Under the pieces are notes generated by a model. It worked only from the letters and a program-made list of their open reading frames with translations, had not been told where the DNA came from and searched no databases. Below are positions 40,902 to 44,640 of a stretch of 64,000 nt of DNA, piece after piece. This stretch comes from a virus. Its lineage: Duplodnaviria > Caudoviricetes. The stretch covers positions 160,001-224,000 of the IMG/VR virus record IMGVR_UViG_2030936005_000025; one strand, 5' to 3'. The number at the start of each line of letters is the position of its first letter. Position 1 is the first letter of the stretch. Position numbers and translations under genes: made by a program.

Positions 40902-40977
40902 GCTTCCATAGTTCAGTCGGCAGAACGGTCGCCTGTTAAGCGATATGTCGCAGGTTCGAGTCCTGCTGGAAGCGCCA
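40902..40977 (+). tRNA. tRNA-Asn(GTT)
   Basis: Acceptor GCTTCCA/TGGAAGC, anticodon loop CTGTTAA, T-loop TTCGAGT, encoded CCA. Confidence 0.93.
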
Positions 40978-42681: not shown

Positions 42682-43290
42682 ATGAAACTTAAGTTGATTA
42701 CTGTTGATAAACGTACCTACGCAATTAAGACTCGATATATCGAGCTGAATAGTGATGCCAGTGTGCATTACCGCTCCCCTATCACTGGAAAATTCCCAAC
42801 AGGGGATGACGATACAATTACTGATGTGCTCAGGTCAGCTCCACCTACTGCCGTTGCTGTTGTGTATTCTTGTAACAGAGAACCAATCTATATTGAAAAG
42901 CATGACGGTGCGTATGTTATCTCTGAAGCTAAGACCATTGAGATTGTCAATCAGCCAGTGGACTTCGATGATGTTGATTTCTGGGTTAACACCAAAGGCG
43001 AGGAAGAGTGGAAAAAGGTTGGACTAGGATATTACATTGAGTATTCTAGAGTACACCTGAATGACAGTTACCAGGTCGCTCAAAAGGATTTCAATTTAAA
43101 TGAAAAAATGCAAGGGATAGTCCACCTGCCAAACGGTCAACTTGGTAAAGCAGTAAGATGGTATCTCAATGGATCGAGGACTTGGCTTAGAGTCACTGAG
43201 GGGATGAGTGAGGATATTCTTTCTAAACTGACCGTGATCACTATCCTTGATGGAAAAAATCCTAATGACCCAGGGTATAAACTTCCATAA
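42682..43290 (+). CDS. hypothetical protein
   Basis: 202-aa ORF. Confidence 0.75.
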   Translation: MKLKLITVDKRTYAIKTRYIELNSDASVHYRSPITGKFPTGDDDTITDVLRSAPPTAVAVVYSCNREPIYIEKHDGAYVISEAKTIEIVNQPVDFDDVDFWVNTKGEEEWKKVGLGYYIEYSRVHLNDSYQVAQKDFNLNEKMQGIVHLPNGQLGKAVRWYLNGSRTWLRVTEGMSEDILSKLTVITILDGKNPNDPGYKLP

Positions 43291-43299
43291 GTATATTAT
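43283..43299 (+). promoter_or_regulatory. putative promoter of the large ncRNA
   Basis: TCCATAAGTATATTAT has the same spacing as TTCAGACCTATATTAC. Confidence 0.45.
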
Positions 43300-43309
43300 G
43301 TAATTCAAT

Positions 43310-44157
43310 CGAGTGTAACTGATCGCTGTTCTGCGGAATAGTATGGTTTCATCACCCCGTTATATTCGACTGTAAGACCCTCGTTATCCAGGTGTGGGTA
43401 CATAACGAGGGCAGTGTCCGGTGGGTTGCACTACCGGACTAAATCCAAGAGTGAACGGCGGCTTAAGCCCGCTACTGTAAGTAGCTCTTGGTTGGGTGAT
43501 ATTATGTACTTTCACTGCATAATGTCCTCTGGCGGTGGTTGGACTTTTGGCGTTCTTCGCCATTGTCTGACAGATCACCGCACCCCTTTGTACCAGTGGC
43601 TGATATCCAAGTAGAGCTTTAATTATACCTGACGGATAGCGCTCACAGTGTTTCAACCATTGGTACATCCTCTTGAGGATCTTGAACGAAAACCGTAGGG
43701 TAACCGCCGAGCACATTGCGTTGCATTCAAGGCGGCTTAAGCAGGGGACTAGGTAGTCTTCCTGGGTGATATCAAGATCCTCAAACCTACTACTCTCCGT
43801 GATATGGAGTAGACACCCCGTGGTGGGGGCATCGTAACCATCTGATGAGTCCGCGATGAGAAATAAAGAGACGAAACGGGTTCTGTCGTTCGGAGACTCC
43901 AACTCCTGACAGATCCGTCATGAATCGCTCTGCCTTAACTGTGAGGAGCAGCCTCAATCTACGATTCTAGAGGAACAGCAGCGTTACTGAAAGATCCACG
44001 GCAAATGGATCGAAGCAGATAACAAACAGTCCGCTCCCTTTGCCAGGGGAGAAGTTGTTAAAACCAAGAGGTGTAGACAGCCTTTAGATCACCGTGGTAG
44101 TAAAATGGGGTTGCTCCCAGAGTAGCTATCAGAAAGTGGTCTTTAGAGTGGCTATAC
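43310..44157 (+). ncRNA. large (~850 nt) structured RNA containing a hammerhead ribozyme
   Basis: No credible ORF; many nested helices (43378-87/43402-11, 43590-99/43657-66, 43674-85/43772-83, 43325-31/43973-79); G-U pairs favour the plus strand. Confidence 0.72.
43827..43935 (+). ncRNA. type I hammerhead ribozyme
   Basis: CTGATGA 43842-48, stem II GTC/GAC, GAAA 43873-76, long stem III, GTC triplet 43917-19, stem I CAT/ATG extended by GGCA/TGCC. Confidence 0.8.
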
Positions 44158-44180
44158 AAAAAAAAATAACAGATCGAGAT

Positions 44181-44208
44181 CCTCTACTCTCCTAACGGAG
44201 AGTAGAGG
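44181..44208. terminator. bidirectional terminator
   Basis: cctctactctcc-taac-ggagagtagagg between convergent units. Confidence 0.8.
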
Positions 44209-44214
44209 TAATCT

Positions 44215-44640
44215 TTATGCTGTCAAATAAAGTTCAGCCCAGATTTTAAATAAACGTTTCATGTCATTTGCGATCAATCCTAATGCCCGTGTATTTTTCA
44301 AGTTACCGGCATACAACCAAAGTTCACACTCAGGTTCACCTACGATCACAATGTCATTGAAATACATGACCAGAGATTTGGATGAGGTAGCAATGAGATC
44401 TTTGCGATTAACTGCAAAGCAGAATTCATTGGATTCAAGAATCACATTGTAGAAATAAGTGAACAGAGCTGCATCAAAACTGTCTGGTTCTAATTCATAA
44501 GTCTCAGCTAACTTAATGCTCTCCTCTTCATTAATAGCTAATTTAGTCAGAGAGTCGTTACCGGTGATAGCAGACAGGTTGCGTTTGAAGATGGTTTCCA
44601 TGATAGCTTTCCTTAATAAGTTAAGAACATTATTGTTCAT
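44215..44640 (-). CDS. hypothetical protein
   Basis: ORF directly after the promoter at 44650. Confidence 0.7.
   Translation of the reverse strand: MNNNVLNLLRKAIMETIFKRNLSAITGNDSLTKLAINEEESIKLAETYELEPDSFDAALFTYFYNVILESNEFCFAVNRKDLIATSSKSLVMYFNDIVIVGEPECELWLYAGNLKNTRALGLIANDMKRLFKIWAELYLTA

Follow-up and report, generated by a model that had tools for sequence, protein, structure and literature searches.

A predicted type I hammerhead ribozyme inside a large structured RNA of nucleus-forming jumbo phages

A gene-free interval occupied by a large structured RNA

The DNA analyzed here, a window of 64,000 nucleotides, comprises bases 160001-224000 of a 264,203-bp IMG/VR virus record. Among named phages, Erwinia phage AH04 is the closest to it, with 85% DNA identity over the region of interest and 92% protein identity in the gene that follows it; both AH04 (Meadowvirus) and the Petsuvirus relatives are members of the Chimalliviridae, the nucleus-forming jumbo phages. 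All relatives share one gene order, in which tRNA genes and a glutaredoxin gene are followed by a gene-free interval of 0.8–1.1 kb and then by a virion protein gene. In the window, tRNA-Asn at 40902-40974 (71 bits) is the first gene of an RNA-rich island upstream of the interval, which holds two to four tRNAs in relatives, and the genes downstream encode the 284-aa virion protein (phrog_3179), a 490-aa protein (phrog_2921) and thymidylate kinase.

We found that the interval carries a large structured noncoding RNA on the plus strand, whose probable primary transcript, as judged from the syntenic gene-free gap and the covarying helices within it, runs from 43291 to 44208. The 5′ boundary is approximate and marks the onset of conservation just past the stop codon of a 202-aa open reading frame (ORF); the 3′ boundary is the end of an intrinsic terminator (44181-44208, plus strand) with a 12-bp stem and a U-rich tail, to which a homologous hairpin corresponds in all relatives. 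Within the 5′ domain, 14 of the 26 pairs predicted over 43369-43497 are compensated across 11 genomes. Upstream of this stretch lies a local hairpin, GCUGUUC-UGCG-GAAUAGU (43325-43342, plus strand), which keeps 6–7 of its seven pairs by compensation in AH04 and in relative L010. The 3′ module (43920-44151, plus strand) is a separately folded unit of about 230 nt in which 19 of 37 predicted pairs are compensated across nine genomes, and its first hairpin (43927-30/43946-49) presents the conserved loop UGCCUUAACUGUGAG.

Comparison of the relatives showed that domains of this RNA come and go. A middle domain of roughly 150–200 nt, with sequence blocks that include GCAACGCG...GAUAGAAUG and GGUAGAACCCGAAC, is missing in the window (at 43497-43540) and in L017 and is present in the other relatives, among them L001, L002, L004 and L024, indicating that the large RNA is modular. 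Survivor, pEt-SU and SXP01 have no 3′ module, and in them the GUC triplet of the hammerhead described below and a short stem I strand are followed directly by the terminator. The hammerhead itself is present in every genome in which we detected the large RNA.

Several features border or overlap the RNA. In Yubaba/Sureiya (L004:1257-1333) and N1M2 (L034:1316-1391), a tRNA-Met directly abuts its 5′ end, so that tRNA 3′ processing could set the RNA 5′ end in these phages; the window carries the 202-aa ORF (42682-43290) in that place. At the other end, an A-run precedes the terminator, which can thus also stop the convergent minus-strand ORF. A 141-aa ORF (44215-44640, minus strand) lies between the terminator and the virion protein gene; it has no PHROG match and, by alignment, is found in the window, L010 and L017 only. 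Two annotated hypothetical proteins, N1M2_252 (L034:1371-1883, minus strand) and QYN80068.1 of Kc263 (L002:2013-2204), overlap the structured RNA, the latter covering the hammerhead as well; both are probably mis-annotations.

Searches for a known identity of the large RNA returned nothing: neither the window at 43000-44500, with Rfam hits accepted up to E = 10, nor the Yubaba copy, with hits up to E = 5, matched a large-RNA family (GOLLD, ROOL or others in the window search). A phiKZ-type early-promoter motif, GTATATTAT, stands at 43291 and occurs once in the window, which equals the chance expectation and is therefore uninformative about a promoter. Four sequencing runs gave Logan contigs of relatives at 85–95% identity; in one small run, contigs ended some 38 nt upstream and 16 nt downstream of the predicted cut site described below and not at the site, so that these ends do not count as evidence of cleavage.

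Anatomy and covariation of the hammerhead

Analysis of the sequence confirmed a complete type I hammerhead ribozyme, with predicted cleavage, at 43839-43922 on the plus strand, in the interior of the large RNA. The preliminary description had listed every conserved element of the core, and each lies where it was placed. The catalytic core C3-A9 reads CUGAUGA (43842-43848); G43849 and C43872 form the opening pair of stem II, G10.1-C11.1; GAAA (43873-43876) supplies G12, A13, A14 and A15.1; and A15.1 pairs with U16.1 (43876/43918) to open stem III. The triplet GUC (43917-43919) conforms to the N-U-H rule, in which H is any base but G, and because the hammerhead consensus places the cut at this point, the scissile bond is predicted to lie between C43919 and A43920. 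The proposed cut after C43919 thus falls at the consensus site and is supported by the way in which the core is conserved, and its helices covary, in 12 further phage genomes.

The three stems give the topology of a type I hammerhead, with stem I open and stems II and III closed by loops. Stem I consists of only 3 bp in the window phage, CAU (43839-43841) with AUG (43920-43922, the first bases of the predicted 3′ product), and of three to four pairs overall. Stem II and its loop (43849-43872) comprise three contiguous pairs (G43849-C43872, U43850-A43871 and C43851-G43870), a bulged A43869 and then C43852-G43868. Stem III (43876-43918) is a two-part hairpin, in which a proximal helix between 43876-43888 and 43907-43918, with 12 pairs and a single bulged U, is followed by a distal helix GGAG/CUCC (43892-95 with 43903-06) and an apical loop, ACUCCAA. 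Finally, five bases of loop II (CGAUG, 43854-43858) pair with the 5′ flank of the ribozyme (CAUCG, 43830-43834) to form a pseudoknot. Of the two peripheral helices proposed earlier, the stem III of about 11 bp therefore stands, with its 12 proximal pairs, and the bulged stem I does not: its distal extension, GGCA/UGCC, is paired in 62.5% of alignment cells, no better than in shuffled alignments, and we rejected it in favor of the pseudoknot.

A hairpin that we call P0 (43816-43829, plus strand) precedes the pseudoknot strand, with a CCCC/GGGG stem and a loop containing UGGUG; a hairpin with a different stem sequence occupies this position in all 10 aligned relatives. The P0 loop (GUGGUG, 43820-43825) and the stem III loop (43896-43902) are complementary over three to five bases. 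A kissing contact between the YUCCA of the stem III loop and the UGG of the P0 loop is possible; YUCCA is invariant, and UGG occurs in nearly all relatives.

A descriptor made up of the core, a G-C-closed 3-bp stem II, a 5-bp A-U-closed stem III, H at position 17 and a 3-bp stem I gave a single match over both strands of the 64-kb window, and 200 dinucleotide shuffles gave none. The nested minimum-energy fold contains stem III and the pseudoknot helix and lacks stems I and II, suggesting that the active fold depends on the pseudoknot.

Twelve further Chimalliviridae genomes have the same element at the syntenic position, so that, with the window, at least 13 phages carry it; carriers include AH04, Kc263, Survivor, Yubaba/Sureiya, N1M2, SXP01, OBP (L024), pEt-SU (L018) and three IMG/VR jumbo phages. 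Across these relatives the flanks diverge, and the catalytic bases, the G10.1-C11.1 pair, GAAAC and CCGUC are invariant. The sole core position that lacks a consensus base, N7, is U, C or A among the relatives. Strict invariance of the catalytic nucleotides together with freedom at N7 argues for selection for catalysis and not for shape.

To assess covariation, we used an alignment of 10 sequences, with controls in which pairing partners were slid by one to three columns and with 500 shuffles. The proposed structure is paired in 89% of cells, compared with 29–48% when partners are slid; changes on both sides occur at 17 of 31 pairs; and none of the 500 shuffles reached the observed values. Stems I, II and III all covary. 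Both G10.1-C11.1 and A15.1-U16.1 are paired in 10 of the 10 sequences. All three pairs of stem I are compensated (CAU/AUG, UAU/AUA and ACC/GGU, with CAG/CUG in SXP01), and in Yubaba, OBP and N1M2 the fourth pair of stem II is U-A in place of C-G. Stem III is a two-part hairpin in every genome, including all 10 aligned relatives, despite sequence divergence; five of 11 proximal pairs are compensated, and its apical loop has YUCCA in all relatives. The pseudoknot is paired in 98% of cells, with three of its five pairs compensated, and its variants range from CAUCG/CGAUG in the window to CGUCG/CGACG in Kc263 and L010, UGUCG/CGACA in Yubaba, CCCG/CGGG in OBP and UUCG/CGAA in SXP01. When the jumbo-phage copies were used to build a covariance model, it found exactly one copy in the 264-kb genome of the window phage, at 159.7 bits. 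The data thus establish the motif, together with its conserved and covarying character and the structured nature of the domains on either side of it.

Predicted cleavage and competing readings

Taken together, the sequence data make it very likely that a competent type I hammerhead lies within the large noncoding RNA (approximately 43291-44208, plus strand) of this Chimalliviridae jumbo phage, its most likely conserved role being to mature the 3′ end of the 5′ domain. On this model, the transcript would fold so that the pseudoknot acts as a tertiary clamp, holding stems I and II parallel, and the core would then cut its own chain after C43919. Hammerhead cleavage leaves a 2′,3′-cyclic phosphate on one product and a 5′-OH on the other, and we infer cleavage and these ends for the present RNA from its motif. 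The 5′ product would end in the cyclic phosphate and retain stems II and III, which would form its 3′ terminus; the 3′ product would begin at A43920 with the 5′-OH and carry the 3′ module and the terminator, some 230–290 nt in all. The sizes of about 620 and 240 nt suggested previously agree well with those computed here: the 5′ piece (43291-43919) measures about 630 nt, and the 3′ piece measures 232 nt to 44151, 238 nt to the A-run at 44157 and 289 nt to the terminator end at 44208.

After the cut, the two pieces would be joined by 3 bp only, and since we found neither a conserved helix bridging them nor an RtcB ligase in the phage genome, they should separate. From the anatomy of the locus alone, we infer a processing role. 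Survivor, pEt-SU and SXP01 retain the ribozyme with only a stem I strand and the terminator beyond the cut, which ties the ribozyme to the 5′ domain, and the conserved role is thus best read as 3′-end maturation of that domain, in which the terminator would be removed and a structured end left behind. In these three phages the cut would remove the terminator only; where the 3′ module exists, it would also free a second structured RNA from the same transcript. Weighing against the model are the 3-bp stem I, a stem II that in this phage has just three contiguous pairs and a bulge, a nested minimum-energy fold that lacks both stems and the failure of Rfam hammerhead models to reach threshold in the window or in relatives.

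A broader proposition, which we hold with about equal belief and doubt, is that the hammerhead is the processing module of a family of large multi-domain RNAs (0.8–1.1 kb) confined to one Chimalliviridae clade (OBP, pEt-SU, N1M2, AH04, Kc263, Yubaba, Survivor, SXP01 and their relatives) and that two separately folded RNAs with protected ends, a cyclic phosphate and a 5′-OH, act in infection. The released RNAs might, for example, act as decoys or as stable scaffolds within the phage nucleus or close to it.

A very unlikely alternative is that the hammerhead fold serves as an architectural part, or as a switch held inactive, with no appreciable cleavage in vivo. Stems I and II are short, as this would lead one to expect, and a pyrimidine strand at 43815-21 could compete for the invariant GGG of stem III, being paired with it in 73.5% of cells. 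That level of pairing, however, was reached by 196 of 500 shuffles, and the competing helix is broken at 15.2-16.2 in six of the 10 sequences; it is, moreover, exactly the catalytic nucleotides that are invariant, with variation confined in the core to N7, which a purely structural element would not explain.

Also very unlikely, in our estimate, is that the pieces stay paired or re-join after cleavage to give a nicked, re-ligated or circular RNA. The preliminary description had favored a nicked or re-ligatable RNA, held together by a helix between 43325 and 43973, and hammerheads can catalyze the reverse ligation that such a molecule would draw on. The helix has all seven pairs in the window, L016 and L017, but only five of seven in AH04 and three of seven in L010, losses that are uncompensated and led us to reject it as a conserved feature; 43325-42 instead forms the compensated local hairpin described above (43325-31/43336-42), leaving the 43325/43973 helix unsupported and, with it, the proposal of a nicked or re-ligatable RNA. 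Three relatives lack the entire 3′ module with which the 5′ domain would have to pair, the phage has no RtcB, and with one ribozyme per transcript there is no route to a circular RNA. Other candidates for a bridge fared no better. The 5′ domain has no conserved complement to the conserved 3′ hairpin loop; an end-to-end helix, ACUGUUUGCU/AGCAAACAGU, pairs perfectly in L016 alone and was likewise rejected as a conserved feature, since by eye the window, AH04 and L017 carry changes in it without compensation; and RNAduplex, applied to the whole fragments for pairing between them, returned giant, uninterpretable duplexes.

The Rfam hammerhead models, proposed earlier as a check, do not recover the motif. 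We considered RF00163, RF00008, RF02275-7 and RF03152. At gathering thresholds, Rfam reported no hammerhead in the window, its only hit being tRNA-Asn at 40902-74, and no hammerhead model exceeded threshold in the 12 relative loci. Under permissive settings, the window matched Hammerhead_3 (RF00008) only, at 16.3 bits against a cut-off of 48.5 (E = 4.2), in an alignment that covers 43829-43882 and imposes a type III closure on the core. This failure stems from the long stem III and the loop II of 13–20 nt and not from a defect in the core. Current Rfam hammerhead models consequently miss a whole subfamily, with a long stem III and a long pseudoknotted loop II, and hammerheads of jumbo phages are therefore under-annotated.

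The Hammerhead_3 alignment bears on a further reading, in which the ribozyme would be a type III hammerhead closed by 43815-21/43876-82, with GUG (43820-22) as its triplet. The strands can pair in the window, but the score lies far below the cut-off, a G at position 17 is uncleavable under the hammerhead consensus, and the helices, unlike those of the type I fold, lack covariation, so that we give this reading almost no credence. Equally negligible is the possibility that the region is coding on the minus strand, with the hammerhead match incidental: a 172-aa antisense ORF exists (43384-43902, minus strand) and the N1M2 copy carries an annotated antisense CDS, but the window ORF, which we judge spurious, has no PHROG match, is not conserved (its frame is interrupted in AH04, L017, L016 and others), resembles the N1M2 antisense ORF over only 15 aa within a conserved nucleotide block, and lies where substitutions preserve base pairs and not codons.

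Significance and comparison with known RNAs

The ribozyme is a distinct subfamily within the well-known hammerhead class, and its type of pseudoknot has already been described; what is new is that it occupies a fixed position within a large structured RNA, so far uncatalogued, of nucleus-forming phages and that current models do not see it. The hammerhead thus has a fixed partner, a large covarying noncoding RNA, at a fixed genomic place. A literature search on hammerheads or large RNAs in jumbo phages or chimalliviruses found nothing relevant. Cultivable carriers include Erwinia phage AH04, Pseudomonas phage OBP, Klebsiella phage N1M2, Serratia phage Yubaba, Edwardsiella phage pEt-SU and Kosakonia phage Kc263, and since natural variants occur with and without the 3′ module, the role of the cut is directly testable.

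About 40% of natural hammerheads, across all three types, have a pseudoknot between stems I and II, and in many of them, including phage examples, rapid cleavage at physiological Mg2+ was shown to require it (Perreault et al. 2011, PMC3088659). The present element shares with the pseudoknotted type I hammerheads of bacteria and phages in that survey the core, an open stem I, GUC, a pseudoknot clamp of 5–6 bp and an intergenic location in phages. It differs from them in its two-part stem III (43 nt) with a YUCCA apical loop, in a loop II of 13–20 nt with a conserved A-rich tail, and in that no Rfam hammerhead model detects it at threshold; it is also an internal module of a structured noncoding RNA of about 1 kb, whereas those hammerheads flank mRNA genes (PMC3088659).

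Compact type I hammerheads upstream of genes of other phages offer a second comparison. The model built from the jumbo-phage copies still finds them (for example L006, L014 and L025) at 18–28 bits, and they share the core, the GAGUC...GACGAAACGGG signature and the open stem I. They measure 50–65 nt, their stems II and III are short hairpins, and no more than about 30 nt separate them from a ribosome-binding site and start codon; the element described here measures about 85 nt between the outer ends of stem I, and what comes after it is a structured RNA or a terminator and not an ORF. We observed about 20 such compact type I hammerheads in unrelated phages (L006, L008, L014, L020, L025, L026, L029 and others), each with a ribosome-binding site and start within about 30 nt. 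Their position before ribosome-binding sites fits 5′-end trimming of mRNAs and is the usual phage setting of hammerheads as reported in 2011.

The syntenic site holds neither a hammerhead nor a large RNA in the Aeromonas chimalliviruses and phage EL, and whole-genome searches of five genomes that lack the element found one other hammerhead only, a compact copy in Klebsiella phage Miami (Miamivirus, also of the Chimalliviridae; L039:256-375, minus strand, corresponding to MT701590.1 222378-222497), which scores 31 bits with model R1. The Miami hammerhead has the CGUCG/CGACG pseudoknot, the loop II tail and GUC in common with the element reported here, and it differs in lying at another locus, where about 350 nt separate two convergent genes, with a short stem III and no large 5′ domain.

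The host RNA as a whole invites comparison with GOLLD and ROOL (RF01998, RF03087), large ornate RNAs of phages and prophages that are often found near tRNA genes. Like them, it is phage-borne, 0.6–1 kb in size, multi-domain and covarying, and it neighbors a tRNA cluster; it differs in having no match to Rfam families at E values up to 10. To our knowledge, neither GOLLD nor ROOL contains a self-cleaving ribozyme. The host RNA is a further candidate for the short list of large "ornate" RNAs.
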